Origin: an uncultured virus (IMG/VR IMGVR_UViG_3300042465_005479)
Taxonomy: Duplodnaviria; Heunggongvirae; Uroviricota; Caudoviricetes
IMG/VR virus record: IMGVR_UViG_3300042465_005479
Strand: one strand, 5' to 3'
DNA length: 20,000 nucleotides
Below the pieces are notes generated by a model. That model worked only from the letters and a program-made list of their open reading frames with translations. It was not told the DNA's origin and searched no databases. Below, in pieces: positions 3,749 through 20,000 of the stretch. The stretch's first letter is position 1. Each line of letters opens with the position of its first letter. The translations under genes and the position numbers were made by a program.

Positions 3749-6538
3749 TTAATTAATATGTTCTTCCCAACCTGGTTCTGCCAATTCATAAATGTATTCA
3801 GAACTAACACCAACTCTATCCCAAAACTTTAATTCCAAATCAGTTATTGTTAATAAATCCTCAATCGTATCTTGGTCCCCTTCTTTATTTGGTATACCTC
3901 CAACCAACTCACATTGAGTCTTAGTAAAAAACCCTCTATCTTCAGGGTTAGCAATTAATAAACTTTCTCTTAACTCCTTATTAAAAACAATTAATAATGG
4001 TTCCACTTTTTTATTAAATGTTGAGATTGCTCTTGCAACATTATAATCTCCGGTTAAGTCAGGGTTATTCTCAATTTCGGTTTGGTCCAACATATAACAA
4101 TTAAGTTGTATTGTTGAGGTAGACTTATCTTCAGGTTCCATACCATTAACTGATGTAAATAAATCCAATTCTTTTTTAGTGTAATTGTTTTTTGTGATTT
4201 TTTGAACATCTCCGTGTGACGCTTTTAAACCATTATTGACATAGCTAATAACATCTCCCAATGAAACTTTTAAGTCGTGTTTGATAGCCAATTCCATATG
4301 AGCCATTCTACTCATCAATGAACCCGCCTTTGTTTTCTGACCACATCTCTTTTTATAATCTTCAACAGATAGTTTAACTCTCGCTCTTTGAGCGATTTGT
4401 TTTAATGGGATTTGTTGGTTGTATATTCTTTGGTGATACTCAAAATACCACTCAACGAATTCTTGTCCTTTTCCTTCTAATAACAATTTCACACCTTTAT
4501 CTAAAAACACCTCAATGTATAGTGGTAATTTCTTAGATTTAATTGAGTTCCCGGTTAATTTAATTTTACCATTAGATTCCATTGTTGCGTAGTTCTTTCT
4601 ACTCAAGTTAATACAAGAATCCCAAGTTCCATCACAATCTAACCCCATCTCACCTTTCATAAACAAATCATTGTATTCTGCGGTGTCGGCGTAATATCCT
4701 CTGTATTCTTTACCCTCTTTAACTAACCAATTTAGTCCTTTACCAATATAAACTCTATCATCAACACCCTCATCCGGTAAACTAAAGTTAACACCATCCG
4801 TATCAAGTACCAAAGGTGTGTATCCTCGTTTAACAAAGTATTTTACCATTTGACGAAGATATTGTCTTCCGGTGCAGGTAATTCTTTCACCACTATTCAT
4901 TTCCCCCCACTCATAAACGTGTGGTGCTGATAATCCACCAAACATCGAGTTAATAAAGATTTTTAATGGTAATTGTTTTCTATCGTATGAAAGTGATTTT
5001 TTAGAATCAATTGATTTATACTCCGACGCCAAGTTTTTATACATAATACGAGCATTACGGAAATAAGTTAACATCCCTTTCATCCCACCCATAACATCAC
5101 ACTCAGGGAACACGTCGTGAACCAATTGAATAGACGGATATAGGGAAGAGTAATCGAGTTTTAATACGTTGGTAGAGTAACCCACCTTAAGTAGTCTTGA
5201 AAGTCCTCCTACGAAGTCTGTCTTCTCTTCTTTTGCTGGAATAGCTAATTTGTTCTTGTAAGACCAAGCCAACATAATCATTCTCCATAGAGTTGCGGTT
5301 CCCATTGTGGAAACTCTCTCGTATGTTGTTGGTACCATTGATGCTAATAGAAACGTTCCTTGGTTGAATTCATCATCCACTGTCAACGTTTCCTCTAAGT
5401 CATCGTCAAGATATCTCTCCACAATATTATCTCCGGTAACCTTTAAGTATTTCCCCGGGAATCTTGTATCTAAATTATTAAAGTCCGGATTATCGGCTCT
5501 TTTATATTTCCCATTCTCAACATTTAACCAATATTCCTCCTTTTTGGCATACATCGGTCCAATTTCTAAGTGGTCAATATAAACTCGGTCGGGGGCTTCA
5601 GCTTTAATGTATTGAGTAATGTATTTAAGTCCTGCGGATTTAATACTTGAATTGATTGCTTGTGCTCTACGAACTGAGTGGATAATATCAATAATATTAT
5701 AACCCCACAATTGAGTTTGTGAGAATCTCTCTACCTCGTTGGCAAGTTTTAACATACCGTCTTTTTGAGATATGGGTCTTGCCGGGTTTAGTGATTTAGC
5801 GATTTTTTTGATGTCCAAGTTAAGTGCTTTGCATCTCTCAAATATCCAAAACCAGTCAAAGTTTGCTGAATTGTATCCACCAATGATTGATGGTTTAAGT
5901 TCATCGATAATGTTGAAGAACTCAACTAATCCTCTTCGTTCTTGGTCCTCATCCGCACATTCAATAACTTTTTGGTATCCTTTATTGGTTTTGATTCCAA
6001 TCATAAATATACGACCGTCTTTAGGTTCAAGAGCAGTCGTCTCCAAGTCAAATCCGAGTCGGGTGATGTCATTGTATTCTTCATACCCTTTGAATAGTCT
6101 TTTCTCTCTTGAAATTAAATATTGTTCTACCGGTGGGAGAACTGTTAATTTTCCTTTTGTCTTTTCACCCCACGGGTCTACACCACCCTCTTTAAAGAAT
6201 TGGATGAGTGAACGATAACCCTTCATTGATTTAACCATATATTTGAGACCCTTTTCTAATCTCTCATTACCTTTGGTTTCTAACTTATCAATGATGATTC
6301 CGTGTTTTTTCATCGCATCTTTTTGTAAGTCTTTAGATTTTGAATAAAAGTTCAAATCTCTCAAGTCTCCAACCCAAGCAAATGCCGTAAATGTATCTTT
6401 TTTGATTATTTTTCCCTGACTCGGGATTTCTTTAATTTTGTAGACTGAATCTGATACGTAATCATATTCAATCGCAACTATGTGCTCTTCGGGGTCATTC
6501 CCTTCAAGGAATGCCTTAATTTCTTCTTGTGTTATCAT
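3749..6538 (-). CDS. polB: Family B DNA polymerase with 3'-5' exonuclease domain
   Basis: ExoI FDLETT, ExoII GYNSANFDW, ExoIII YLDDDL; polymerase motif A LDYSSLYPS, motif B KIFINSMFG, motif C LDTDGV. 929 aa; no intein or intron seen. Confidence 0.96.
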   Translation of the reverse strand: MITQEEIKAFLEGNDPEEHIVAIEYDYVSDSVYKIKEIPSQGKIIKKDTFTAFAWVGDLRDLNFYSKSKDLQKDAMKKHGIIIDKLETKGNERLEKGLKYMVKSMKGYRSLIQFFKEGGVDPWGEKTKGKLTVLPPVEQYLISREKRLFKGYEEYNDITRLGFDLETTALEPKDGRIFMIGIKTNKGYQKVIECADEDQERRGLVEFFNIIDELKPSIIGGYNSANFDWFWIFERCKALNLDIKKIAKSLNPARPISQKDGMLKLANEVERFSQTQLWGYNIIDIIHSVRRAQAINSSIKSAGLKYITQYIKAEAPDRVYIDHLEIGPMYAKKEEYWLNVENGKYKRADNPDFNNLDTRFPGKYLKVTGDNIVERYLDDDLEETLTVDDEFNQGTFLLASMVPTTYERVSTMGTATLWRMIMLAWSYKNKLAIPAKEEKTDFVGGLSRLLKVGYSTNVLKLDYSSLYPSIQLVHDVFPECDVMGGMKGMLTYFRNARIMYKNLASEYKSIDSKKSLSYDRKQLPLKIFINSMFGGLSAPHVYEWGEMNSGERITCTGRQYLRQMVKYFVKRGYTPLVLDTDGVNFSLPDEGVDDRVYIGKGLNWLVKEGKEYRGYYADTAEYNDLFMKGEMGLDCDGTWDSCINLSRKNYATMESNGKIKLTGNSIKSKKLPLYIEVFLDKGVKLLLEGKGQEFVEWYFEYHQRIYNQQIPLKQIAQRARVKLSVEDYKKRCGQKTKAGSLMSRMAHMELAIKHDLKVSLGDVISYVNNGLKASHGDVQKITKNNYTKKELDLFTSVNGMEPEDKSTSTIQLNCYMLDQTEIENNPDLTGDYNVARAISTFNKKVEPLLIVFNKELRESLLIANPEDRGFFTKTQCELVGGIPNKEGDQDTIEDLLTITDLELKFWDRVGVSSEYIYELAEPGWEEHIN

Positions 6539-6597
6539 AATTATATTTTTTAGATTGACATATTGGCTCCGATATAAATCGGGTTTGTCTTGTTTCT

Positions 6598-6630
6598 ATA
6601 AATATATTGTAATAATCTCATTTAGTCAAA
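6598..6630 (-). promoter_or_regulatory. Putative promoter of the DNA polymerase gene
   Basis: Minus strand reads TTTGACTAAATGAGATTATTACAATATATTTAT. This gives TTGACT-17 nt-TATATT (sigma70-like) and also TTTG-20 nt-TATATTTA (one mismatch from the Bacteroidota -33/-7 consensus TTTG/TAnnTTTG). It lies just downstream of a terminator. Confidence 0.6.
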
Positions 6631-6633
6631 TAC

Positions 6634-6660
6634 AAAAAAAAAAGACCCGAAGGTCTTTTT
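6634..6660 (-). terminator. Rho-independent terminator with C(UUCG)G tetraloop
   Basis: Minus strand AAAAAGACC-TTCG-GGTCTTTTTTTTTT, 3 nt after the stop (6664) of the carbonic anhydrase-like gene. Confidence 0.9.
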
Positions 6661-6663
6661 GTT

Positions 6664-7737
6664 TTATAATGGTAATCCTGAAACATATTCTGATGTTAGG
6701 TCAACCCAACCACCGTTAATACTATATTTCCAAAATTGGTCGATATTAACGTATGATTCATATCCATAATCTGTATTAATAAAAACACCACTAGTGAAAA
6801 ATATCTCAGTAGAAGGTCTTGATAATAACACACTATTTGTTGCTCCCGATAAATTAGCAAATAAATAAGTAAATGCGTTTTCTTTAATTTTATTTGTTGA
6901 AAAAATCATTTGTTTATTATATATTTCTTCCGATGTTCCCGTAAATCCTGATAATGTACCACGAAACGGCCATAAGATATCAACTAACTTATAAAATTCA
7001 TAATCTCCTGAACCTGAATAAGTACTAAATGTTGGTGTGGTAGCACTCCAAGTTGTTAATACCTCACCTATGGCTCCCGCCACAGCTCCACAAGTATTAT
7101 CTGTGATACTATCTGGTTTACCTTTTCTTAACATTCTTCCCGCACGACCATCTATTGTTACACCAATATGAGGTGTACTTGTTATAAATAAAGTTCCGCC
7201 ACTTGTAATGTGGCTAGCCCAAGCACCTAACCCAACAGTTCCAACAAATGGGAACCCTGCTAAACCACCTGACATAAACGGACCAAGAAATGTGTTCATA
7301 GAAGTTGGAAATTGTCCAATATTATCAACACCTGTAAATACGGGACCATCAACATCATCAGAACATATACCTTCGGCGTAAATAATATCATCAGGGGAAT
7401 AACCTTTACTAGTAATAAATCCTTTTGTATACTCACCCCAAGATTCCGATAACGTTGACGAAGAATATGCTAAACCACCTTCCGGATTAACAATACCTCT
7501 AAGGGTAGTTGTATAACCTGATTGTAATGGAGCCGGCGCCGGCACATTAAAATTGTAACTATAGTTATATTCTAAAACATTAATATCATAATTACCATAT
7601 GGATATGGTGTAATATTATTAAATGGTATTGTCTGAATACCTAAATTTTGTGGTGTCCCTCCGGATGCTGGAGTAAAGGTAACAGACGCGGTTTTACCTA
7701 TTAAATTATTACTGATAATTCTTAAACCTATTGACAT
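6664..7737 (-). CDS. LCIB/LCIC-family (theta-class) carbonic anhydrase-like protein with an extra N-terminal domain
   Basis: Ordered family motifs: ICSDD (Cys125, Asp127), GPFMSGGLAGFPFVGTVGLGAWASHI, TPHIGVTIDGRAGRMLRKG (His190), NTCGAVAGA (Cys216), and late GVFINT. The first ~70 aa are a separate beta-rich segment ending in a PAPAP linker. Confidence 0.82.
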   Translation of the reverse strand: MSIGLRIISNNLIGKTASVTFTPASGGTPQNLGIQTIPFNNITPYPYGNYDINVLEYNYSYNFNVPAPAPLQSGYTTTLRGIVNPEGGLAYSSSTLSESWGEYTKGFITSKGYSPDDIIYAEGICSDDVDGPVFTGVDNIGQFPTSMNTFLGPFMSGGLAGFPFVGTVGLGAWASHITSGGTLFITSTPHIGVTIDGRAGRMLRKGKPDSITDNTCGAVAGAIGEVLTTWSATTPTFSTYSGSGDYEFYKLVDILWPFRGTLSGFTGTSEEIYNKQMIFSTNKIKENAFTYLFANLSGATNSVLLSRPSTEIFFTSGVFINTDYGYESYVNIDQFWKYSINGGWVDLTSEYVSGLPL

Positions 7738-7768
7738 AATTATTTTTTTTGTTTTTTTTTATTTATTT

Positions 7769-7777
7769 ATAAATATC
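7769..7777 (-). promoter_or_regulatory. GATATTTAT upstream motif (putative phage promoter)
   Basis: Minus-strand GATATTTAT 31 nt before the ATG at 7737, followed by an A-rich leader with no Shine-Dalgarno sequence. Confidence 0.5.
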
Positions 7778-7793
7778 AAACACTTTAAAAAAG

Positions 7794-8480
7794 TTAAAGT
7801 AAAATGTTTGATATAATATCATTATTTGGGATTATATCATCACCTAAATTATTATCAGGAATACTATTTGTTATAATATTGTTATTTGGTATGATGTCAT
7901 CACCTAAATTATTGTCAGGAATATTACTCGTTATAATATCGTTATTTGGTATAACATCGTCATCTAAATTATTATTAGGGATTGTTTTATAAATAAAATC
8001 TTTGTCTTTAATTAATTCATAATTAAAATATACAAGTGATGGTGGTTGTGGTATAACAGAATGTGATACACAACAAGGATAAACTGATGTGTAGCAAGTA
8101 TCATATTCTAAATCGTCAGCAATAAATGACTCTTGAATATATATGTTTAGTTTTTCCCTAATTGGTAATATTATATTACCGTCAGATGTCTTTATTAAAA
8201 ATTGTCCTTCATTTCTACCCTCAACACTCGTGTCTTGTTTGGTAAATTGATAGTAAATATAATATTCAGGTTCTGCATTGGGGTCGTCAAATATTTTTTC
8301 AACAAACCCCGCTGGTCTTGAAGTTATTTTTGGAATACCTGTCTCAGAATTAACCATAGAAAAGAATATGGTTGAGGATTCCAATAATTCCATAAAATTA
8401 TTGTAATCACTTCTACCATCTTTTACTACTTGAAGTTTAAGAAGAGGTAAGGTTGCGTTTTTCTTTATAAAAAATTCCAT
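7794..8480 (-). CDS. BppU-like (baseplate upper protein N-terminal-type) domain protein with Asn/Asp-rich repeat tail
   Basis: MEFFIKKNATLPLLKLQV...YIYYQFTKQDTSVEGRNEGQFLI...ILP matches the F-x-IK-x-N-x-T-x-P...Y-x-(W/F)...DT...G...G-(E/Q)-F pattern of BppU-like Ig-fold adaptors; C-terminal 3 x 20-aa repeat. Confidence 0.6.
   Translation of the reverse strand: MEFFIKKNATLPLLKLQVVKDGRSDYNNFMELLESSTIFFSMVNSETGIPKITSRPAGFVEKIFDDPNAEPEYYIYYQFTKQDTSVEGRNEGQFLIKTSDGNIILPIREKLNIYIQESFIADDLEYDTCYTSVYPCCVSHSVIPQPPSLVYFNYELIKDKDFIYKTIPNNNLDDDVIPNNDIITSNIPDNNLGDDIIPNNNIITNSIPDNNLGDDIIPNNDIISNILL
7807..7983 (-). repeat. Three imperfect 60-bp tandem repeats (coding)
   Basis: Lines starting 7801, 7861 and 7921 align column by column; they encode IPNNNLDDDVIPNNDIITSN / IPDNNLGDDIIPNNNIITNS / IPDNNLGDDIIPNNDIISN. 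Confidence 0.92.
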
Positions 8481-8494
8481 TAAAGTTTTTATTT

Positions 8495-8502
8495 ATAAAT
8501 AC
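8495..8502 (-). promoter_or_regulatory. GTATTTAT upstream motif (putative phage promoter)
   Basis: Minus-strand TATTTAT (8495-8501) 14 nt before the ATG at 8480. Confidence 0.5.
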
Positions 8503-8516
8503 TTCAAAATATAGAA

Positions 8517-10190
8517 TTAACTTTCTTTTCTTAATGAACCGTCATAATGTTCAAATCTATCGTGTTCCGTTGGTGTTAATAACAATAATCCCGGATTAAT
8601 TTTTCCTTTAACAGTTTCTTGATAACAATAAGACATTAACGTCTGTTCAAATGGGTGAGCCCATTTTGTTTCTAAATAACACTTATAGTTACCTTCTCTT
8701 GTTAATATTATCGGCCAATTACATAAATAAACTTCCCCTGTCGCATATGATAACCCTTTATATGTCCTTATCTCCTTAAATTGTGTTTTAGGTGAATTAG
8801 GGTCTAGTCCTTGAACCGGTAATTTAGGGTTATTCGGCCAATGAGATTGTCTAAAATCTTGAGGGACATTATACCAACTCCATTGAACACTATTATCACC
8901 AAAAAATTCACTAAAATTTAATTTAAGAAAATCAAAATTTTCTTTTTTAACAATCTCTACTGATTTTTGATATAATTTATCAACAAAACGAGGGAACCCA
9001 TTTCTACATACCTCACCTTTTTTTGGATAAAAAGCCATATCGTCTTCAAACCACCAATAACAATCTAAATCAGTTTCATCAAAATGTTCAGCAACAAACA
9101 CTCTCCCCCCGACAATACCAATGTTGTCTTTTTTAATATGTTCAAAACCATATTGTTCACATAGTTCAAGATATCTTGGTGTTGTTGATAAATCGGTTGA
9201 GTTATCTAATAAGAATTTTTTTGGTTTATCAATAAAGTCAGAATCATAATCTAACATAGATTGGATTAATACCTCAAATTGTTTAGGTGAGTTAAATGCT
9301 ATAACATACAATCCAACTTTGGATGTGTCTAAACTATTCGGTTTAATTGGTAAAACACTTTCTTTAACTTGAGTCGTGTTATTTTTTAAGTCCTCAAAAA
9401 ATTTACCCATTAATCCATTATCTTCTATTTCTGAATAACTAATCAACTCAGGGTATTTGTATGTCATAATTGTAAATAACGATTCTTCAGTTCCCATTAA
9501 CCCTTGTGATAATGTATCATTCATTAACCCGTAATAGATACCGTTAATATCTGATATAACATCTTTTCTTCCTCCGAAGAAACCTGCTCGAGCAACCATT
9601 TTAACTGGTTCTCCGGCTAATTCACATAATTCAGGATATTTAAATCCGTGGATTTCAGAATTAGTTTCATAAGGGAAACAAACAAAATGAAAATTTTTAA
9701 CTAATTGAGGTAATTTATCTAAAACCTTATCGTGTGTAAAATATCCCGGGTGAATTGTATTTGTTAACCCAGCGTCAATCCAAAACATATATTCTGAATT
9801 AAACCTATCTAAAATTTTAGCATCGTGTAGGAGATAAATTTTTGACATAACCAACGGGTTATACATCTCTAATTTAGCTTGAGTTGAATCGGTTAACCAT
9901 CCGACTTGATTATACCAATCCGGATTTGTTCTTATATTTTGTATTTTATCAAAAAAATCGTTGTCTTTAAACCAAGACAAACTTCTACGAACAAATTGTG
10001 TGTTTTCACTTCGTCTATTGTTTGACACAAATTTCTCTAACTCTTCGTCACCAAAAATAATCATATTCACATCAACTTGTAATAGTTGTTGAAATTTATC
10101 TAAATAATGTTGGAATGAACGAGACCAACCCTCTTGAAGGTCTCCTCTACCTATATCCCATAATCCTGTCACTAATGTTACTTTACTCAT
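8517..10190 (-). CDS. HtrL/YibB-like domain fused to a GT-A fold glycosyltransferase-like domain
   Basis: N-half: VTLVTGLWDIGR...YLDKF...SKIYLL...FWIDAG...GFFGG...GTEESLFT (HtrL-like). C-half: LYVIAFNSP...LLDNST...NIGIVGGR...WFEDDM (GT2-like with EDD motif). ATGA overlap with the upstream gene. Confidence 0.72.
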   Translation of the reverse strand: MSKVTLVTGLWDIGRGDLQEGWSRSFQHYLDKFQQLLQVDVNMIIFGDEELEKFVSNNRRSENTQFVRRSLSWFKDNDFFDKIQNIRTNPDWYNQVGWLTDSTQAKLEMYNPLVMSKIYLLHDAKILDRFNSEYMFWIDAGLTNTIHPGYFTHDKVLDKLPQLVKNFHFVCFPYETNSEIHGFKYPELCELAGEPVKMVARAGFFGGRKDVISDINGIYYGLMNDTLSQGLMGTEESLFTIMTYKYPELISYSEIEDNGLMGKFFEDLKNNTTQVKESVLPIKPNSLDTSKVGLYVIAFNSPKQFEVLIQSMLDYDSDFIDKPKKFLLDNSTDLSTTPRYLELCEQYGFEHIKKDNIGIVGGRVFVAEHFDETDLDCYWWFEDDMAFYPKKGEVCRNGFPRFVDKLYQKSVEIVKKENFDFLKLNFSEFFGDNSVQWSWYNVPQDFRQSHWPNNPKLPVQGLDPNSPKTQFKEIRTYKGLSYATGEVYLCNWPIILTREGNYKCYLETKWAHPFEQTLMSYCYQETVKGKINPGLLLLTPTEHDRFEHYDGSLRKES

Positions 10191-10756
10191 ATTGTATCTC
10201 TAATTTTATATATTATTTTATCAACAAATTCATATTCCATAATTTTGGATAAGTCTTCGTAAAATAACCCATCCCCGAATACGTCTTCTTGAAACATTGG
10301 TAAATTTTTAGTATTAGGAATGACACCCATACATTTACCAATATTCCCTAGTGTTACTTCTTTTGTCGTCCAATTAATTGTTCCTCCCCATTTATGTTTA
10401 AAAATGTATAGTTTTTTTTCTGTAACGACTTCCCTTATATACTCAAAGGCATCATCAACATAATAATCATCGTCGTCCGCAAACATAATAAAATCACCGT
10501 CAAGGTTATTAATGTGTTTGTTTAATAAAGGGTGTCCAAACTTACCTAATCTATCCCCATCATTTATAATGTGATTTAATTTAAAATTAACATCATAATT
10601 AGATAAAACATTTTGAACAAACTCGTGATTTGTATCGGATATTATGGTAAAAGAATCGTTTTGGGTTAACTGATTTTTAAAACTATCAATCAATCTTGGT
10701 AATGATTCTCTTCCAATAGTTGTGCAAACAATGTTAAAAGAATAGTTAGACATCAT
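10187..10756 (-). CDS. Glycosyltransferase family 2-like protein
   Basis: FNIVCTTIGRESLPRLIDS...IISD...GHPLLN...GDFIMFADDDDYY...GDGLF. Start revised from 10786 to the ATG ATG at 10756/10753, which overlaps the end of the upstream gene. Confidence 0.75.
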   Translation of the reverse strand: MMSNYSFNIVCTTIGRESLPRLIDSFKNQLTQNDSFTIISDTNHEFVQNVLSNYDVNFKLNHIINDGDRLGKFGHPLLNKHINNLDGDFIMFADDDDYYVDDAFEYIREVVTEKKLYIFKHKWGGTINWTTKEVTLGNIGKCMGVIPNTKNLPMFQEDVFGDGLFYEDLSKIMEYEFVDKIIYKIRDTI

Positions 10757-11591
10757 ATTTCTCATCAATTTTATATTTGTCGACATCCAATAAATCCATA
10801 AGGTCCAATATCCCTCTTTGTAAATCTAACCAATCACCAAAATTAAAAAATTTAACGTCATTTGTGTGAGTTAATATAGATAAAACCTCTTGTTCACTAA
10901 TTAATTTACCTGTTGTTGTGTAATATGTTTCAAAAATCGATAAGTAATTAGATAAAACTTTTTGAATAGACTCACTTGTCCCTCCAAACATACCTCCGGG
11001 AACTAACTTAAAGTCTGTGTTAAACATATTAACAAGAACTGCTTTTAATTCGTAATTAACCTGAATTGATTCTCCTCTTAAACAAATAAAACCATTCTCA
11101 GATATTTTTTCATTTATTTTATTTAAAAATAATTCTGAATGGGCAAAAACATTAATGTAATCTCTCCATCTATCGTGACAACTAGTTCCAAAAAGTCCGG
11201 AATCAATCCACACAACATTTTTATTATCTTCACACTCATCGAGTAAAAATTGTAACTTATTAAAAATAACTTCTACATAATTTTTAACACAATAAATTCT
11301 ATCGTAAATTTCCCCTTCGGCAAATTTAACTAATCTAATTGGGTTTATGTTGTTTAGGTAATTTTCAGAATTTAATTCGTGAAACTTTATGGTTACATTT
11401 GGTTGGTTAAATTGTTCACCTAAATGATATTTGTCGTAAGTGTATTGATTAGTGTAAATAACATATTCAAAACCTTCAAAAATTATACTACGTAATGTTT
11501 GGGTTAATAATGGATATGATTTATATACCATACCACCTCTGGAATCTTCATAGTTTAATTCATAAACTGATGTAATAATTTTTAATACCAT
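10746..11591 (-). CDS. HtrL/YibB-like putative glycosyltransferase
   Basis: KIITSVY...YVIYT...NKLQFL...VWIDSGL...PGGMFGG...SEQEVLS has the same motif order as the N-half of 8517..10190. Confidence 0.62.
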   Translation of the reverse strand: MVLKIITSVYELNYEDSRGGMVYKSYPLLTQTLRSIIFEGFEYVIYTNQYTYDKYHLGEQFNQPNVTIKFHELNSENYLNNINPIRLVKFAEGEIYDRIYCVKNYVEVIFNKLQFLLDECEDNKNVVWIDSGLFGTSCHDRWRDYINVFAHSELFLNKINEKISENGFICLRGESIQVNYELKAVLVNMFNTDFKLVPGGMFGGTSESIQKVLSNYLSIFETYYTTTGKLISEQEVLSILTHTNDVKFFNFGDWLDLQRGILDLMDLLDVDKYKIDEKYDV

Positions 11592-12289
11592 TTGTCGTGA
11601 TTGGGGATTAATAAGTTTATGTGTTTGCTAGAATTGTTTTTTAAGTCAACACCGTTATGTAATGCTGAGAAACACATTTCATCTATATTACCCGCAGGTA
11701 TATTATATAAATTGTCAACATATTTAATCTCAATACATTCATCCCAAGTTTTTAAAAATGAATAAAATTTATCTTTATCAATATCTAAAAATTGAATGCA
11801 GTCTTCCGGCATCCACATATCCACTTTATTATATTGAACGTCAAATTTATTTTCATAATGTAAGTATCGTCTTCCTAACATACTATTTGTCTCAACCTCT
11901 TTTTCAAAAAGATAGGTTACTTGACCGGCAACACTATTAGGTATAAAACACTCTAACACATTTTTTTTTGTGAATAATGATTTGTTTGGTATAACATCCG
12001 TATCTGTTAAAATTACTTTAGTAAATCCACTATCTAACGCAAATTTTACTGAGAATCTTTTAACTGAAAAATCAAAATCATAATAATTCGTATTATATGT
12101 CACATATTTTTCATTATATTCCTTAATATGTGAAACAAATACATAATCTTCTTTAGTAATTGATTCCGGATTATCTGTAACTATGAAAATATTTGGTTTA
12201 TCTTCAAATTCTTTAAATGATTCTATCATTCTATTTGTTTGGGCATAATATCTATCACCATAACAAAATGTTGCTATCGCATATTCCAT
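11582..12289 (-). CDS. Putative nucleotide-diphospho-sugar transferase (GT-A, DxD motif)
   Basis: AIATFCYGDRYY...IFIVTDNP...VKRFSVK...VILTDTDV...IDEMCFS; lies within the glycosylation cluster and overlaps the next gene by 10 nt. Confidence 0.6.
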   Translation of the reverse strand: MEYAIATFCYGDRYYAQTNRMIESFKEFEDKPNIFIVTDNPESITKEDYVFVSHIKEYNEKYVTYNTNYYDFDFSVKRFSVKFALDSGFTKVILTDTDVIPNKSLFTKKNVLECFIPNSVAGQVTYLFEKEVETNSMLGRRYLHYENKFDVQYNKVDMWMPEDCIQFLDIDKDKFYSFLKTWDECIEIKYVDNLYNIPAGNIDEMCFSALHNGVDLKNNSSKHINLLIPNHDKWY

Positions 12290-12293
12290 ATTT

Positions 12294-13541
12294 TTACAAA
12301 TTACCTGTTATTCTTTCACACCAACCTTTTGACTTACTAAACGGCCAAACAACCCAGTATTTTGGTTTATGAACAGTTTGGAAATCTCTCCAAACTTTAC
12401 AATACCCATCAGGGTCTCTCATCATATTATTAATCTCATTGATATCAGCATCTTTTCTAAAAAGTGTTTCATCTTTTTCATCGTGGAAAGCAACAACCCA
12501 AAATTCGTAATCTTTTTCAGGAACTTGAGAAAATCCAATGTCGATACAATGTTTAAAGATACTAGCGTAACTTGCCAACCATTCTTCCTCAGTTTCAAAT
12601 ATTTGAGGATTAGGTGCGTAATTTTTATCTAAAGTATATTGTTGAACAGCTCTATTTGAAAATTTAAGACCTGAATAAATTTCATAATCTTTTAAAGTTC
12701 TTTCAGTTCCGAACCCGTAAAAACTAAAGTCCATTGTAACGTCTTCACCGTCCATACCAAATAGTTGACGATTCTTTTTATGAGATAATTCATTTTTCTT
12801 ACCCCACTCTTTATCATCATCCCATTGTTTGGTTCTACCCTTACGAGTATATTCGTGCCAAATAACAGTTTTGTGTGGGTGAAATAAATCGTATCCGTGT
12901 GTAAATGCTCTAACAGCGATTGAGATTTCTTCTCCGTGGAAATAGAATTCAGGGTCGTGTTGAACCTCGACACTAAATTGTCCCAATGTAAATGCCATAT
13001 GGGCGGAGTAAAATCTTGAGGTAACGGGTTCTTTAAGATTTTCCCACCCCGGAATTGTTTCAGGTAAAAAGAAGACGGCACCTTCCGGTATAAATCTATC
13101 AAAAGCCATTCTCCAAGGTTCTTTAACTCTACTTGCCGGGTCATTGTCCGGGTCGAATGAAGAAACATAACCTGTTAGTAAAGGTTTCTTAAATCCTTTC
13201 TTTTGAAGTTGTTTAACCATTTTGATTAGGGTGTCGTCCCAATCTTTTTCAAATCTCATATGAGAATCGATTTGTAAGGTATATTCTTCACCTTTATATA
13301 GTTGTTGAACTTGGTTTCTTGCCCAACAAACCCCTTTGGATTCGGTGTATAGAACATCAATAACTCTAAAACGTTTATCACCTTTGAATTCTGATAAATT
13401 ATCAAAACCATCTTCCGGATGATATTGACGACAAATACCGATTACTAAATTTTTAGGTTTCTTTGCATTCTCCAACATTGATTTAATTGTTGGGATAAGT
13501 TGGGGGTCACGATAGGACGCAATTTGGACAAATATCTTCAT
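12294..13541 (-). CDS. Gnt1/GT60-like polypeptide (hydroxyproline/Thr) alpha-GlcNAc transferase
   Basis: KIFVQIASYRDPQL, GVCWARNQVQQLYKGEEYTLQIDSHMRFEKDWD (DSH motif), FYFHGEEISIAVRAFTHGYDLFHP and WHEYTR are signature segments of the Dictyostelium Gnt1-type GlcNAc transferase family; ~90-aa extra C-terminal domain. Confidence 0.85.
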   Translation of the reverse strand: MKIFVQIASYRDPQLIPTIKSMLENAKKPKNLVIGICRQYHPEDGFDNLSEFKGDKRFRVIDVLYTESKGVCWARNQVQQLYKGEEYTLQIDSHMRFEKDWDDTLIKMVKQLQKKGFKKPLLTGYVSSFDPDNDPASRVKEPWRMAFDRFIPEGAVFFLPETIPGWENLKEPVTSRFYSAHMAFTLGQFSVEVQHDPEFYFHGEEISIAVRAFTHGYDLFHPHKTVIWHEYTRKGRTKQWDDDKEWGKKNELSHKKNRQLFGMDGEDVTMDFSFYGFGTERTLKDYEIYSGLKFSNRAVQQYTLDKNYAPNPQIFETEEEWLASYASIFKHCIDIGFSQVPEKDYEFWVVAFHDEKDETLFRKDADINEINNMMRDPDGYCKVWRDFQTVHKPKYWVVWPFSKSKGWCERITGNL

Positions 13542-13594: not shown

Positions 13595-16237
13595 TTATAT
13601 TCCACCATCAATAATTGTCCAACCATACGTTCCGGTTAGAATTGCTCTACCGGCTGAACTACCGGCAGTATATTTAATTGTTCCAAAATTAATGTTAATT
13701 CCAGAGGTTAATGTTGGTAAAGAACTCCATCCATTATAAATTGCGTCAAGATTTGTTGTTGAGTAATCACTAAATGTTTTACCATTCATAAATCCATTAA
13801 AGTTTGTTACGCCGGTAACGTTCCAAGAACCAATATTTTGATTAAATCCTACTGAACCAAACATATTTGACATATTAGTCACATTACTAACGTTCCAAGA
13901 ACCAATAGGTTGATTGAATTGTGTTGCTCCGTTAAACATCTGTTGCATATTTGTTACATTACCAACGTTCCAACCACTAATATTTTGATTAAAAATACTA
14001 CACGTAGCAAACATTAATCTCATTGTTGTAACATTAGAAGTGTCCCAACTAGTTATATTACCATCAAATGCGTAATCAAACCAAAACATATAATCCATAT
14101 TAGTTACTGAACTTACATCCCAAGAATTAAGGTTTTGGTTGAATATTGTGTTAAAAAAGAACATACCTTCCATAGTTGTAACATTTGATACATCCCAAGA
14201 ATTAATATATTGATTAAATGGGGATAAACTAAACATATAATTCATATCTGTAACATTACTTACATTCCATCCCGATAATGGTTGGTTAAATGATGTTGAT
14301 TGATAAAACATATAATCCATTTTAGTAACACTACTAACATCCCAAGAATTAATTGGTTGGTTAAATGGTGTTAAAGGGAACATATCACCCATATCAGTAA
14401 CATTATATGTTGTCCAACCACTAATCATTGGTGAACCACCGTTATTAAATGATGTGCAACCATTAAAAGTTCCTTTCATATTAGTAACACTACCAACATT
14501 CCAAGAACTTAAATTTTGGTTAAAAACGGTATTTTGTAAGAACATATAACTTATAGATTGAACATTTGATACATCCCAAACACCAATTGGCTGATTAAAT
14601 AAATAAGTGTTATCAAACATTGCTCCCATATCAGTAACATTACTAACATCCCAACCTGATATGTCGTCATTAAAATTATGACACTCAAAAAACATACCTT
14701 GCATATTTGTTACGTTTGATGTGTTCCAAGAATTTATAAAAGGGACTGTTGTTAAATTAGTACAATTCTCAAACGTATAAGATAAATTATTTGTTCCCGT
14801 TAAATCTAAAACATCGGTAACATTTGATAATGATAAATTATTACAATTAGAAAAATACGAACCACTATTACCCAAACGTAAACAACCCCACTGTAGAACT
14901 TCTCTAATTTTATTTCTACTAATAGGGTTAACACCAAACGACCACCCAATTAATGTCCCTGTTATTGTTATTATATAATCACCCGGAGTTACATATGTGT
15001 GTGTTCTATTATCGTAAATATTATTAGAGGTTTCCCCATCACCCCAATCAATTGTTCCATAATAAAACCCCGAAGTTTCATATGGTAATGTAATTGATTC
15101 GTTTATAGTTGTTGTTCTCCAAACAGAGATAAAGGATGGTGGTATAACAGGATTACAAGTTTGATATTTAACACATACCTCACAAAAAATGTATGTTGTT
15201 CCGTGGTCCCAAAAATCGGTTACCCAAGTCACAATTTTAGATACACTAATAATTTCTAAACACTCACCAAATGAATTGACAACCGCAGTTCCCGGTAAAA
15301 AGTTAGACGGTAACATAATATATTTTATAATCTTTTTAGCACAACAAGATTGAACTTGGAACAACACATACTTAACAGGTGTTGTTGGTGTGGGAGTGTG
15401 AGTCGGAGTTGGTGTAGGTGTATGAGTCGGAGTTACCGATGGTGTTATTGATGGTGTAGGTGTTGGTGTGGGTGTTGATGTTGGACACGGATAGATAAAA
15501 TTGGCTTTCTGACAATGGTAAATACTCGGTTGAGAACCCATCGCAATAAATGAATAGAAATTGTTTGTAGATGAACTAACAACATAAGTGGCACATCCAA
15601 TGAAACCACTACTTTCAATATAATACGCTCCTGACAGAGGACTAAATGATATTGGTATGTTTGATAAGGTAAATTGGTTTGATGAATCACAACTATCCTC
15701 AAAATAACCAACTATCGGTGGTAATGTTGGAGTGGGTGTCGGAGTGGTGGTTGGTGTAGGTGTTGGTCCGGGGCAAACATCCCCAACACAAATATTAGAT
15801 GAAACCTGAATTATTAATCCACTATCACCATACGGAAATTGACCACAAACATATAATGTGGTTGCCGAGTAAATCTCACCATAGATTAATGTCCCGTCAC
15901 ATTGAGTATACCCAAAATTTAATGTTACCCCTAAAGGGTTATCAATTGAGATACAATTACAAACGGAATTTGTTGGTGTGGGAGTGGGTGTTGTCGTTGG
16001 TGTTTGACTAGGAGCAGGTTCACCACAAAAATGATATTGAATTTCTTCACAACCAATGTTATCTGTGACTATCACTAAGACTTCTTGAGAACCTGATAAT
16101 TCTGTTGGTATGTTTAGAATTAACGGGACTGATGAGACAGCTGTCGCAACAACATAACAATACGTTCTTGTTATATCACATATTGATATGTTATATGGGG
16201 AATGTCCGGATAAACTTGTGATTTCAATTACTTGCAT
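13595..16237 (-). CDS. Modular putative virion surface protein: Cys-rich modules with (Pro-Thr)n linkers, PKD-like domain, DUF285/BspA-type repeats
   Basis: Three PT-rich tracts separate Cys-rich modules; FISVWRTT...TIDWGDG...HTYVTPGDYIITITG is PKD-like; 13 W(D/N)VSNVTNM..MF....FNQ.I..-type repeats follow; C-terminal cap ends YGWTIIDGG. No signal peptide seen. Confidence 0.85.
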   Translation of the reverse strand: MQVIEITSLSGHSPYNISICDITRTYCYVVATAVSSVPLILNIPTELSGSQEVLVIVTDNIGCEEIQYHFCGEPAPSQTPTTTPTPTPTNSVCNCISIDNPLGVTLNFGYTQCDGTLIYGEIYSATTLYVCGQFPYGDSGLIIQVSSNICVGDVCPGPTPTPTTTPTPTPTLPPIVGYFEDSCDSSNQFTLSNIPISFSPLSGAYYIESSGFIGCATYVVSSSTNNFYSFIAMGSQPSIYHCQKANFIYPCPTSTPTPTPTPSITPSVTPTHTPTPTPTHTPTPTTPVKYVLFQVQSCCAKKIIKYIMLPSNFLPGTAVVNSFGECLEIISVSKIVTWVTDFWDHGTTYIFCEVCVKYQTCNPVIPPSFISVWRTTTINESITLPYETSGFYYGTIDWGDGETSNNIYDNRTHTYVTPGDYIITITGTLIGWSFGVNPISRNKIREVLQWGCLRLGNSGSYFSNCNNLSLSNVTDVLDLTGTNNLSYTFENCTNLTTVPFINSWNTSNVTNMQGMFFECHNFNDDISGWDVSNVTDMGAMFDNTYLFNQPIGVWDVSNVQSISYMFLQNTVFNQNLSSWNVGSVTNMKGTFNGCTSFNNGGSPMISGWTTYNVTDMGDMFPLTPFNQPINSWDVSSVTKMDYMFYQSTSFNQPLSGWNVSNVTDMNYMFSLSPFNQYINSWDVSNVTTMEGMFFFNTIFNQNLNSWDVSSVTNMDYMFWFDYAFDGNITSWDTSNVTTMRLMFATCSIFNQNISGWNVGNVTNMQQMFNGATQFNQPIGSWNVSNVTNMSNMFGSVGFNQNIGSWNVTGVTNFNGFMNGKTFSDYSTTNLDAIYNGWSSLPTLTSGININFGTIKYTAGSSAGRAILTGTYGWTIIDGGI
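13780..14740 (-). repeat. DUF285-type ~25-aa (~75-bp) coding repeats, 13 copies
   Basis: Recurrent plus-strand ACATCCCA/ACGTTCCA/ACATTCCA words at ~72-75-bp spacing, encoding WDVS/WNVS-type units. Confidence 0.88.
15377..16022 (-). repeat. Three Pro/Thr low-complexity tracts (~15377-15485, ~15718-15773, ~15971-16022)
   Basis: GGTGTN/GGAGTN hexamer runs encoding PTSTPTPTPTPSITPSVTPTHTPTPTPTHTPTPTTP, PGPTPTPTTTPTPTPTLPP and PAPSQTPTTTPTPTPT. Confidence 0.9.
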
Positions 16238-16770: not shown

Positions 16771-19700
16771 TTATGTATTTTTTAATATCATTATTGTTAA
16801 TGTGCCTTGGTTTATTGCTCCAAAACCACCACTTACCGTGGCGTTTTGACCCTGAACAGTTGCTGTATCAACCTCAACAGTATGAATTCCTGCTGATAAT
16901 GTTATAATAACCGACATATTCCAATTTGCGACCCAGTTTCCTACCGTAGCATTTCCCGTTGGGTTGTCGGCATACATTCTTTGATATCCACCGTTGGGTA
17001 ATATAATACCATCCACCACTAATGCCACATCAATTGCCGAACCACTAGTTGTTGTGGTTCCAACGGTATTAACCCCACCATTTGTTTGTATACAAACCAT
17101 AGTTTGTGTAGGTACAGTTATTGTAGTGGTCAATCCCGGTATTAATGTTAGTAATGTAGTTGTATTGGTAACGAGTAATGAGGTAGAACCTGTTATCATC
17201 GTACCAAATTGACCCAACGTAAGTGCACTACCATTACCAAAATATGTTCCACCACTAATTGTTGTTCCTGAGATACCCCCGGTTGATGATATAAGTCCGG
17301 TCGATGTTACTGAACCATCATCTTTAACATCAAATACTTCAGTATTTGCGTAATTTTTCAACGTTAAATAACTTTGAGGAGTAAATACAGAAGGTGAGTT
17401 TAGTTTAACAACTAAATTATCAAATTGTAAATTTTGATTTGCTGCGGTTGAATAATTAAAGAATACTCCAAGAGAACTCATTAAACTAGACGTGTATGTA
17501 CTATCAACTGCACTACCAATTAATGTTGTTACGGTTGTAGGGTCACCCCACGCAACTGCACCATCGTCTCTGAAATAGTATGTCCAAGTATTTGTTGATG
17601 GCGTATATACAATTCTTGCACTAACATAATTAGTACCTGCCGCGAAAACACCTCCTGAAATTATATCTGTTCTAGTACCAAATAATCCACTGGTATATCT
17701 AACTAACCTCCAATTTCTTGTTCCTGTTCCACCATAAACTAATGCGTATCCGTTACCGGTATTCAGAAGTGTTCCACTAGTACCCGCTAAAACAACTGCA
17801 GCTCCATAGGTACCGGCTGAGAATCCTGGAAATATGGTGTTTCTATTTGTTCTTAGATTAAATGACCATTCAACATTTACAGTATTTAATGATAATGTTG
17901 GATTAAATGGTGAGTTAAAACCGGATAATGGTACCGTAGTGTATGACTGACCCGCAGGATTTCCGTTTGCAATATTTAAATAAGTTGATGCCGTTATTGT
18001 TGCATTACCAGCACCTGTATTTGTATTTGTGTAGGTTAACGATGGTGAACCTCCGGGTGATAGAGTAACTCTATTATAATCATCAGTAAATGCTGAAACA
18101 GCAATCGGTGTTGACGGTAGATTGGTTGAGTTAAGAACTACAGTTCCCCCACTTATTGTTGTTGCGGATATTGTATTTGCCGTTAAACCTCCTGTAAATA
18201 TTGTTGCTCCCGTTACTGTTCCTCCTGATAATGGTAAGAAAGGTGTTGGTGGTAAATTTTGGTATGTTGTTGCTGAAATAGTAGTGGCGGTTAAACCTCC
18301 TGTAAAGTTTGTTGCACCTGTCACTGTTCCTCCTGATAATGGTAAGAAAGGTGTTGCCGGTAAATTAAAATAAGTTGTTGCTGATACTGATGTCGCACCA
18401 AAAGTACCGTTTACATCTAAATTAAAATTTAATATTGGATTGACAACATTTGTATTAACACCAACATTACCATTCCCTAATTCTTGAAGGATTAAATTCC
18501 CTGGATTTCCACCCCCGTTTGACCTAGAACTAATTGACTTCCCATTAGTTGACCCCGTGATATCCCCGTAAAATAGTATATTACCTGATATCCCCGGACT
18601 ATAATTATCGGTTGTGATTATTAATGGGCTCGAGTTATTTTTTAGTATTACTTGACCTGTTACCGTTCCACCTGATAAAGGTAAGAAAGGTGTTGGTGGT
18701 AAATTTTGGTATGTTGTTGCGGATATTGTAGTTGCAGTTAACCCTGATGCAAATGTTTGTCCCGCACTAAAATTATTATCAATATTTGTTAATGCTAAAT
18801 TATTATATTTGTTTGAATCTAAATGATAATATTGGTTAGGAAGACCTCCTTGTATGTTCGTTAAATCATTGTGAACTCCGGGAGCACCACTTGGTTGAAA
18901 TACTGATGAAAATGCCGACTGTGTAATACCTGTTGTCGCACTTACCTCAATAATAATCCTACCAACCAAAAATGTGTGTGATGTAATTAGTTCAGGTAAA
19001 TTTGGTTCACTTGAAGCGTCCGCTAATAATATATTATCGAATTGTCCATCACTAACCACCTCATATAAGTGGTCATTTAATTCTTGTCCTCTAAAATACC
19101 AATTAACTAAATATTTTCCTGCGGTTGCTGATACTAAATCAGTACCATTATCATAGTAAAGATTATTAATTGTATTTGCTGTTGTGGTATAAACCCACGT
19201 ACCGCCTGAATGGAAATTTCTAAAAAAAAGTCCTAATGAAGTTGTGTCATTAACTATTTGACGATTAGTGGCGTTCCAAACAACACCTGAAGATAAGGTT
19301 ACAATACCTGTACTTCCACTTAAACCTAACGAACAACCACTTTCTCTCGCGAATCTATCTGTATATACAATACGTTCATTTAATTTACTTGGTAAACCCG
19401 CACCCTCATCACCAAACTCTAAAACGTGAATAAAATTATTTGTTCGATAGACAATCATATATAATAGAATACTACTAAAATCAACAGTCCCCTCATTATC
19501 TAAAACATTATATCTAGGAACCCCATTATTATATTCAATTATAATATAATTTGTGTCGTTATTTATTAATGCCGGAAGTGACCCGACACCTGTGGTTCCG
19601 CTTGAAATTGAATAAAATTTAAGAGGCTCAAAAAAATTAGGGTTGTCGTATAATGCAACCGTTATCTGCGGTAAATTAATTGACCCGTCATTATTACTTG

Positions 19701-20000
19701 ACCAACCTGTGTTACCACTAATAACTCCCGGGTCATAATTAGATGGTCCAAAAATATTAAAAGTACCACCTGTACTATTTGTAAAAATAGTGTTGCCTTG
19801 GAAATATGTTCCTCCGGTAATAAAAACGTCTTTTGGTAAATTATAATATGTTGTTGCCGAAATTGTGTTTGCGGTTAAACCATCTGTAAATATTGTTGCT
19901 CCCGTTACTGTTCCTCCTGATAATGGTAAGAAAGGTGTTGCAGGCAAATTTTGATATGTTGTTGCGGAAATTGTGTTTGCAGTTAAACCATCTGTAAATA
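16771..20000 (-). CDS. Large Gly/Thr/Ser-rich modular tail-fibre/virion adhesin-like protein, 5'-truncated
   Basis: The frame stays open to the window edge (...FTDGLTANTISATTYQNLPATPF...), so the TTG at 19947 is not the start. Repeated PFLPLSGGTVTG...GLTANTISATTYxNLP units separate globular modules; contains HNDLTNIQGG...YYHL. Confidence 0.78.
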   Translation of the reverse strand, partial: FTDGLTANTISATTYQNLPATPFLPLSGGTVTGATIFTDGLTANTISATTYYNLPKDVFITGGTYFQGNTIFTNSTGGTFNIFGPSNYDPGVISGNTGWSSNNDGSINLPQITVALYDNPNFFEPLKFYSISSGTTGVGSLPALINNDTNYIIIEYNNGVPRYNVLDNEGTVDFSSILLYMIVYRTNNFIHVLEFGDEGAGLPSKLNERIVYTDRFARESGCSLGLSGSTGIVTLSSGVVWNATNRQIVNDTTSLGLFFRNFHSGGTWVYTTTANTINNLYYDNGTDLVSATAGKYLVNWYFRGQELNDHLYEVVSDGQFDNILLADASSEPNLPELITSHTFLVGRIIIEVSATTGITQSAFSSVFQPSGAPGVHNDLTNIQGGLPNQYYHLDSNKYNNLALTNIDNNFSAGQTFASGLTATTISATTYQNLPPTPFLPLSGGTVTGQVILKNNSSPLIITTDNYSPGISGNILFYGDITGSTNGKSISSRSNGGGNPGNLILQELGNGNVGVNTNVVNPILNFNLDVNGTFGATSVSATTYFNLPATPFLPLSGGTVTGATNFTGGLTATTISATTYQNLPPTPFLPLSGGTVTGATIFTGGLTANTISATTISGGTVVLNSTNLPSTPIAVSAFTDDYNRVTLSPGGSPSLTYTNTNTGAGNATITASTYLNIANGNPAGQSYTTVPLSGFNSPFNPTLSLNTVNVEWSFNLRTNRNTIFPGFSAGTYGAAVVLAGTSGTLLNTGNGYALVYGGTGTRNWRLVRYTSGLFGTRTDIISGGVFAAGTNYVSARIVYTPSTNTWTYYFRDDGAVAWGDPTTVTTLIGSAVDSTYTSSLMSSLGVFFNYSTAANQNLQFDNLVVKLNSPSVFTPQSYLTLKNYANTEVFDVKDDGSVTSTGLISSTGGISGTTISGGTYFGNGSALTLGQFGTMITGSTSLLVTNTTTLLTLIPGLTTTITVPTQTMVCIQTNGGVNTVGTTTTSGSAIDVALVVDGIILPNGGYQRMYADNPTGNATVGNWVANWNMSVIITLSAGIHTVEVDTATVQGQNATVSGGFGAINQGTLTIMILKNT
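18150..20000 (-). repeat. Dispersed 108-bp (36-aa) repeat units in the fibre gene
   Basis: The GGTAAGAAAGGTGTTG core occurs at 18233, 18341 (108 bp later), 18680 and 19925. Perfect matches: 57 bp (18192-18248 = 19884-19940) and 41 bp (18233-18273 = 18680-18720). Confidence 0.9.

Follow-up and report, generated by a model that had tools for sequence, protein, structure and literature searches.

Here we describe a gene in a 20,000-nucleotide (nt) stretch of DNA (the window) from an uncultured tailed phage (IMG/VR record IMGVR_UViG_3300042465_005479), whose 357-amino-acid (aa) product joins a small immunoglobulin (Ig)-like N-terminal module to a carbonic anhydrase domain of the LCIB/theta type. 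The protein is a true member of the LCIB/theta family by profile, sequence and fold, is likely an active zinc enzyme and, as far as its sequence relatives tell, belongs to an LCIB-family clade found almost only in tailed phages. We favour, at about even confidence, a reading in which it would be a late, virion-associated carbonic anhydrase-type enzyme over one in which it supplies bicarbonate in the cytoplasm, because the protein carries the N-terminal module (hereafter the handle), its gene follows a motif found before virion genes, its homologues in other lineages lie in blocks of structural genes and no close cellular donor was found. The initial annotation of the gene, made from the sequence without database searches, knew of no characterised phage member of the family; our literature search, which left subscription journals largely outside its coverage, likewise found no description of one.

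The family assignment made in that annotation holds up. In a profile hidden Markov model search, the protein matches Pfam PF18599 (LCIB_C_CA) with an E value of 4.6e-27 and a score of 95.2 bits, well over the cut-off of 25, with residues 99–332 aligned to profile positions 6–216 of 223. A sequence search of the PDB returns LCIB-family entries only (6kfs, E = 1.2e-16; PtLCIB4, E = 6e-13; and 9vzj), among which the match to Chlamydomonas LCIB/LCIC (5k5w and 5b5x) is weak (E = 0.007 and 0.012). An AlphaFold2 (AF2) model built from 78 sequences, with a predicted local distance difference test score of 92.6 and a predicted template modelling score of 0.83, superposes on the experimental structures of the family: in Foldseek, this predicted structure matches PtLCIB4 (5b5y_A) with E = 2.4e-17 and a template modelling (TM) score of 0.84, 6kfs with a TM score of 0.82 and LCIB/LCIC (5k5w and 5b5x) with 0.71, and canonical beta-carbonic anhydrases match more weakly (E = 1e-4 to 3e-3). 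By fold, the domain spans roughly residues 89–357 (Table 1).

The catalytic residues common to the family are intact. The whole protein contains only two cysteines, C125 and C216, and only two histidines, H176 and H190; residues 125–127 read C-S-D and the stretch GGLAGFPFVG begins at residue 157, so that the C125-x-D127, H190, C216 and GGLAGFPFxG signature named in the initial annotation is present in full in the translated open reading frame (ORF). C125, D127, H176, H190 and C216 align with C46, D48, H88, H102 and C126 of PtLCIB4, in a numbering derived from the alignment and from the PDB entries S47R and H88A. Together with R204, these residues are found in all 70 family rows inspected (29 close, 20 intermediate and 21 distant), and the same six do not vary across 30 phage homologues whose overall identity is just ~54%. 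On the strength of family, fold and catalytic residues, we consider an active zinc enzyme likely.

Three observations bear on a different reading of this domain, in which the protein would be a virion-borne binding or sensing module without catalysis, such as a sensor of bicarbonate, CO2 or pH or a receptor-binding head, with zinc serving structure or ligand binding. Position 131, six residues past the first cysteine, is Gly or Ala in the phage clade and Arg in PtLCIB4 and 6kfs; this Arg and the invariant R204 are the two candidates for the partner of the catalytic Asp, D127. Some family members are perhaps not constitutively active: according to one review, Chlamydomonas LCIB may need modification for activity, and only the diatom forms "appear to be constitutively active" (PMC9614477). 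The N-termini of the viral clade also vary, as those of receptor-binding proteins do. However, that Arg is missing from many distant family members too and its absence is thus not peculiar to phages, which is why we do not read Gly or Ala at this position as a defect; moreover, the conservation of D127, H176 and R204 in 70 of 70 rows, alongside the three metal ligands, goes beyond what a structural metal site needs. We consider a non-catalytic role distinctly improbable.

Set beside its characterised relatives, the phage protein shares with PtLCIB4 and PtLCIB3 of Phaeodactylum tricornutum and with 6kfs the Pfam family, the fold, the Cys-His-Cys ligands and the GGLAGFPF loop, as well as two further aligned residues, a second His (H88 in PtLCIB4) and the Asp that follows the first Cys. 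It is, however, only 21–23% identical to PtLCIB4 and 6kfs in structural alignment, and it differs from them in a nine-residue insertion past CSDDVD, in Gly for Arg at position 131 and in the extra Ig-like module; in contrast to the PtLCIB proteins, it is encoded by a phage rather than by a plastid-bearing alga and has no evident link to a CO2-concentrating mechanism. Chlamydomonas LCIB and LCIC share family and fold at a much weaker sequence match, and they act around the pyrenoid in CO2 recapture, a setting foreign to a phage of a probable heterotroph. Bacterial LCIB proteins, from Planctomycetota, Balneolaceae and Bacteroidota (for example Prolixibacteraceae and Chitinophagaceae), have the same domain and the same invariant residues, but they are at most 33% identical, fall outside the viral clade and lack the handle.

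That the gene is phage-encoded, as first proposed, is borne out by its genomic context. The window lies in a 38,896-bp IMG/VR virus record (13% complete by CheckV), and an identical protein is encoded by seven viral contigs, among them a 272,437-bp genome (G001; 91% complete) that is near-identical to the record of the window and whose copy of the carbonic anhydrase-like protein is 100% identical. G001 has genes for terminase, portal, prohead protease and a major head protein of the gp23 type, for the tail sheath and tube, for the hub and wedge of the baseplate, for a sigma factor and for a complete set of replication proteins. At 38–45% identity, its capsid and portal proteins resemble those of uncultured huge phages and of two cultured ones, Microcystis phage Mel-JY01 and Flavobacterium phage immuto, with more distant matches that include Rhodothermus phage RM378 and T4-like phages. 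This gene set and these relatives mark the phage as an uncultured, ~270-kb T4-like jumbo myovirus without a close cultured relative; neither the protein (tblastn) nor the window (megablast) matched any cultured phage. The PHROGs database has no family for the 357-aa protein, nor for 18 other proteins, relatives and handle-bearing ones (see below), that were compared with it. One clade member does sit on a 1571-bp contig of a bacterial metagenome-assembled genome (MAG), which could speak for a cellular contig, or a chance frame or pseudogene, but the virion genes of G001 (terminase, portal, protease, major head, sheath, tube and baseplate), the viral loci that carry relatives (25 in a first search and 139 in a pattern scan of IMG/VR) and full-length conservation in more than 100 homologues refute this reading, whose probability we regard as negligible.

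These homologues form a branch of their own. A word-index search returned 245, more than 100 of which are full-length at 52–57% identity and lie on contigs of up to 320 kb, and an exhaustive search returned 724 at an E value of 1e-3 or better. In contrast, a scan of cellular genomes (one genome for each of 185,579 prokaryote species), which relies on one peptide pattern and may miss some relatives, found 93, of which the best, at 46% identity, is the 1571-bp MAG contig (L133) and all others are at most 33% identical (Planctomycetota, Balneolaceae and Bacteroidota); apart from that contig, no close cellular homologue was found in these genomes. In a quick maximum-likelihood tree of 88 rows with long branches present, all 33 viral rows and L133, which is nested among them, form one clade with full support (Shimodaira–Hasegawa-like approximate likelihood-ratio test, 100) on a stem of length 0.7; L133 is probably a piece of phage DNA that binning assigned to a bacterium. 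Closest among the cellular rows is a Chitinophagaceae MAG contig on a long branch (support 93), a sister relation that is unsure because the tree search was quick and the branches are long. The ESM Atlas clusters nearest to the protein are labelled mostly viral, which we take as a lead only.

The phage protein also differs from the cellular ones in the handle, which AF2 models as a six-stranded beta-sandwich. At 50–64% identity, the same module begins other proteins, including some of ~690–785 aa, none of which has a Pfam or PHROG family. In G001, a profile of the module picks out five copies: one in the carbonic anhydrase gene, three in large ORFs (803, 744 and 1040 aa) and one that stands alone (69 aa). 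Except for the first, they adjoin one another in the interval from the terminase to the portal gene (G001:C1:17021-25006; loci L049, L050 and L052), and two of the three large ORFs have DUF285-type repeats and Pro/Thr-rich linkers. The module is in this way common to the carbonic anhydrase and to fibre-like DUF285 proteins, which are putative rather than proven virion components. Other members of the viral clade have different N-termini, for example a second recurrent module of ~45 residues or only a short leader; one enzyme on interchangeable N-terminal modules, together with one module on several repeat proteins, is a pattern of phage surface proteins. Modular surface proteins of phages are known to share N-terminal anchors or Ig-like domains, as in multi-tailspike phages, T4 Hoc and the Ig-like domains found on structural proteins. 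The likeness here is that of one small Ig-like N-terminal module on several large proteins of the same phage, and the difference lies in the cargo, a carbonic anhydrase fold rather than a fibre, lectin or depolymerase. A structure search of BFVD with the handle gave nothing below E = 0.098, and a search of the ESM Atlas gave no usable match. The interval between terminase and portal genes that holds the handle ORFs in G001 is, in T4, the site of the sheath and tube genes.

Homologues without the handle place the enzyme among structural genes. We compared 13 such loci from other lineages, with PHROGs annotation on part of them and one (L127) annotated by BLAST to G001 alone, and in 12 of the 13 the homologue lies within a structural block. 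Three (L107, L116 and L127) have the order head-tail adaptor, three ORFs, LCIB-like gene, small ORF, tail sheath and tail tube; in nine (L106, L113, L117, L118, L122, L123, L125, L131 and L132) the region of the major head protein gene comes first, then the LCIB-like gene and then a 'virion structural protein' (phrog_29507, present in all four loci scanned). In the remaining locus (L105), it sits between a gene for a carbamoyltransferase–glycosyltransferase fusion and a polymerase gene. Within the jumbo-phage group itself, the order of helicase, 294-aa gene, adaptor-like gene, 114-aa gene, polymerase, LCIB-like gene, 228-aa gene and glycosyltransferase is kept at a divergence that reaches ~54% identity for the LCIB-like protein and ~70% for the polymerase, and in the phage studied here fibre-like, adaptor-like and sheath genes lie within ~10 kb of the gene.

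The expression signals around the gene agree with this picture in part. The gene had been credited with its own upstream motif and a strong terminator, and both are there: an exact copy of ATATTTATAAATAAA, whose core TATAAATA we take to be that of T4 late promoters, stands 24 nt before the ATG, and a nine-pair hairpin with a T run follows 4 nt past the stop codon. The window has five ATATTTATAAATAAA sites with at most two mismatches, compared to 1.25 expected, a number reached in 2 of 200 shuffles, and six terminator-like sites in 6300–8700, compared to 0.8 expected from shuffles. The hairpin separates the gene from the downstream DNA polymerase gene on the same strand, which has a different kind of upstream signal, as a sigma-70-like site precedes it. 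Together, these elements suggest that the carbonic anhydrase gene would be a unit of its own, with a late-promoter-like motif in front and a hairpin terminator behind.

The company that the motif keeps in G001 bears on its timing. Fourteen sites there have at most one mismatch, and 13 of them stand 0–60 nt upstream of a start on the same strand. Exact copies precede the prohead protease gene and the gene following the portal gene, copies with one mismatch the tail sheath gene and the 228-aa neighbour of the carbonic anhydrase gene, and copies with two mismatches an adaptor-like and an endolysin-like gene. Among PHROG-annotated genes, the motif stands before 4 of 11 virion or lysis genes compared to none of the 16 replication or repair genes checked (Fisher, ~0.02). 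The TATAAATA core is found upstream of 19 of 34 orthologues, and the others have close variants such as TATAATAAATAAA. Because the TATAAATA-type motif is shared with some virion genes and absent from the replication genes checked, we infer late expression alongside virion genes. RNA contigs from two runs of one freshwater sample align with segments of the gene and of its polymerase neighbour at 90–97% identity; for the gene, the cover (7043-7422, 96% identity, 14 differences) speaks for presence only, since DNA carry-over is possible, and not for start, strand or timing, and no meaning attaches to the segments left uncovered.

The initial annotation saw in the gene an auxiliary function, the supply of bicarbonate for carboxylation or nucleotide synthesis, or a modulation of pH, during infection. 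In the form in which we considered it, a cytoplasmic enzyme would accelerate the interconversion of CO2 and bicarbonate to serve purine, pyrimidine and fatty-acid carboxylations or buffer pH during jumbo-phage DNA synthesis, and the handle would serve oligomerisation or localisation. The intact and strongly conserved catalytic residues suit such a role, as do the lack of an obvious signal peptide in the 357-aa protein on inspection by eye and the position next to a DNA polymerase gene both here and in L105. There is also precedent, as viral auxiliary genes for carbonic anhydrases are on record for the alpha, beta and gamma classes (bioRxiv 10.64898/2026.01.21.700432; PMC13037468). These, from sponge viromes, and the carbonic anhydrases of dinoflagellate giant viruses are likewise virus-encoded, but they belong to other classes and are read as metabolic, and the accessible portions of the reports mention no LCIB/theta type, virion module or structural-gene context. 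Against a cytoplasmic role stand the handle, common to DUF285 fibre-like proteins between terminase and portal genes; the motif, shared with prohead protease and sheath genes and absent from all 16 replication genes checked; and the homologues within structural blocks. The clade, moreover, has a long stem and no close cellular donor, which is unusual for a host-derived auxiliary gene. A more specific link to carbamoyl phosphate, prompted by the fusion gene of L105, fails as well, with Carbam_trans_N in none of five related records. We therefore do not favour the auxiliary role and hold it to be unlikely.

In the reading that we favour, of a late particle-associated enzyme, the two-part protein, an Ig-like handle (residues 1–68) followed by a zinc enzyme domain of the LCIB/theta type with its beta-fold (residues ~89–357), would be produced late, together with the virion proteins. 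The handle would fix it to the particle as a decoration of head, neck or tail. By converting CO2 and bicarbonate into each other in that place, the protein would alter pH or inorganic carbon locally, outside the cell, on the surface of the host or during entry. As to the role of such a particle-borne enzyme, we offer guesses: it might change pH or bicarbonate near the host surface, act in sensing or be delivered along with the DNA. Tentatively, and with more doubt than we attach to the association with particles, the clade may represent a virus-specific branch of theta-carbonic anhydrases that is built into tailed-phage particles through interchangeable handles and either senses or changes carbon and pH during adsorption or ejection, or is delivered with the genome.

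Several points weigh against the association with particles, in addition to the residue at position 131 and the perhaps conditional activity of some family members. What a phage would gain from an extracellular carbonic anhydrase is not obvious from anything known to us. The gene studied here sits between glycosyltransferase genes and the DNA polymerase gene, outside the head and tail block. The fold of the handle is a generic Ig/FN3 sandwich (best VIA Z score 6.3, tied with many unrelated rows, and 71 chains with a Z score of at least 5), searches of PHROGs, VIA and BFVD link the handle to no known anchor, either by sequence or by a specific fold, and it has no known docking partner. At up to two mismatches, the enrichment of the motif in G001 is modest (52 sites compared to 12–29 in 20 Markov controls); in that genome the motif was not found before the major head, portal, terminase, tube and baseplate genes, nor before the other handle-bearing genes. 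In several cases it ends 7–9 nt from the ATG, which is short for a promoter and a leader, and the late timing is read from a resemblance to the T4 late promoter.

Table 1 Features of the carbonic anhydrase-like gene and its surroundings in the window.
Feature	Position	Strand	Remarks
Coding sequence, 357-aa protein	6664..7737	(-)	Open ORF: N-terminal Ig-like module, Pro-rich linker, LCIB-type carbonic anhydrase domain
Residues 1-68, six-stranded Ig/FN3-like beta-sandwich (handle), then linker VPAPAP	7534..7737	(-)	AF2 models; module heads other proteins
Residues 99-332, Pfam LCIB_C_CA match	6742..7443	(-)	Domain by fold ~89-357
Active-site codon stretch	7090..7365	(-)	C125 7363-7365, D127 7357-7359, H176 7210-7212
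Active-site codons, continued		(-)	H190 7168-7170, R204 7126-7128, C216 7090-7092
Promoter-like motif ATATTTATAAATAAA, core TATAAATA	7762..7776	(-)	Exact 15-mer, 24 nt before ATG
Intrinsic-terminator-like hairpin and T run	6639..6660	(-)	9 pairs, 4 nt past stop codon
Sigma-70-like site TTGACT-17 nt-TATATT	6601..6629	(-)	Before family-B DNA polymerase gene (3749-6538); consensus match only
Conserved upstream neighbour, 228 aa, no family match	7794..8480	(-)	Same motif, 1 mismatch, at 8488-8502

The 228-aa neighbour ends in 2.9 copies of a 60-nt tandem repeat (7807-7979) that encodes IPNN(D/N)IITSNIPDNNLGDD units, and only its N-terminal ~60% is conserved within the clade of 54% identity. Beyond it, on the same strand, five probable glycan-modifying genes occupy 8517-13541: an HtrL_YibB-like gene (557 aa), a GT2 glycosyltransferase gene (199 aa), two genes without assignment (281 and 235 aa) and a GlcNAc-transferase-like gene (415 aa; phrog_24687, E = 1.6e-168). 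Further genes of this kind, for a GDP-sugar dehydratase/epimerase-like protein, an aminotransferase and additional glycosyltransferases, are found at 48–56 kb of G001. In L105, the fusion upstream of the LCIB-like gene (L105:105-2900, plus strand) encodes 931 aa, the first part of which is a Nol-like carbamoyltransferase (phrog_1601, E = 6.5e-101) and another part of which matches the HtrL-like glycosyltransferase of the window with 46% identity across 567 residues.

Two large genes follow on the minus strand, both without the handle. The first (13595-16237) encodes an 880-aa DUF285 protein with BspA-like repeats and long Pro/Thr linkers; the second (16771-19998) encodes a fibre-like protein of more than 1075 aa, in which a 108-nt tandem repeat (18157-18384) encodes PATPFLPLSGGTVTGAT-type units. 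Each is probably a surface or fibre protein, and glycosylation by the phage itself may extend to its Pro/Thr-rich surface proteins. Elsewhere in G001 (G001:C1:2402-4335 and 33815-34957), paralogous ORFs of 270, 215, 145 and 380 aa share an N-terminal EEKNRILNLHES-type motif, and one ORF of this family is preceded by an exact copy of the upstream motif.

DNA near-identical to that of the phage occurs in 22 lake-water metagenome runs, some of which may be its source and many of which may share one campaign. Its G+C content is 32%, Shine-Dalgarno-like words precede only 10 of the 252 ORFs of at least 100 aa in G001, and the leaders are A-rich, with 50–60% A at positions −14 to −2. Rare Shine-Dalgarno words and A-rich leaders are typical of Bacteroidota, which makes these the likelier host judging from such sequence signals; the closest cultured relatives by capsid include both a Microcystis phage and a Flavobacterium phage, and tRNAs offer no clue, as no tRNA gene was found in the 272 kb of G001. 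We also considered a cyanophage, in which the carbonic anhydrase would short-circuit the CO2-concentrating mechanism of the host, and rejected this idea: neither psbA nor nblA is present in any of five related records, and the leader pattern is more like that of Bacteroidota.

Viral carbonic anhydrases have so far been listed as metabolic helpers of the alpha, beta or gamma classes. What differs here is the theta/LCIB type, familiar from the CO2-concentrating mechanisms of algae, with a large tailed-phage clade of its own, fused to putative virion-type handles and located among head, neck and tail genes. If the enzyme is indeed carried on the particle, it would represent a new kind of virion-borne activity, and one would have to ask why CO2 or bicarbonate is handled outside the cell by a phage that infects lake bacteria; should it act in the cytoplasm, it would nonetheless be the first member of the family from a phage and would offer a compact, probably soluble LCIB-type enzyme for biochemistry.

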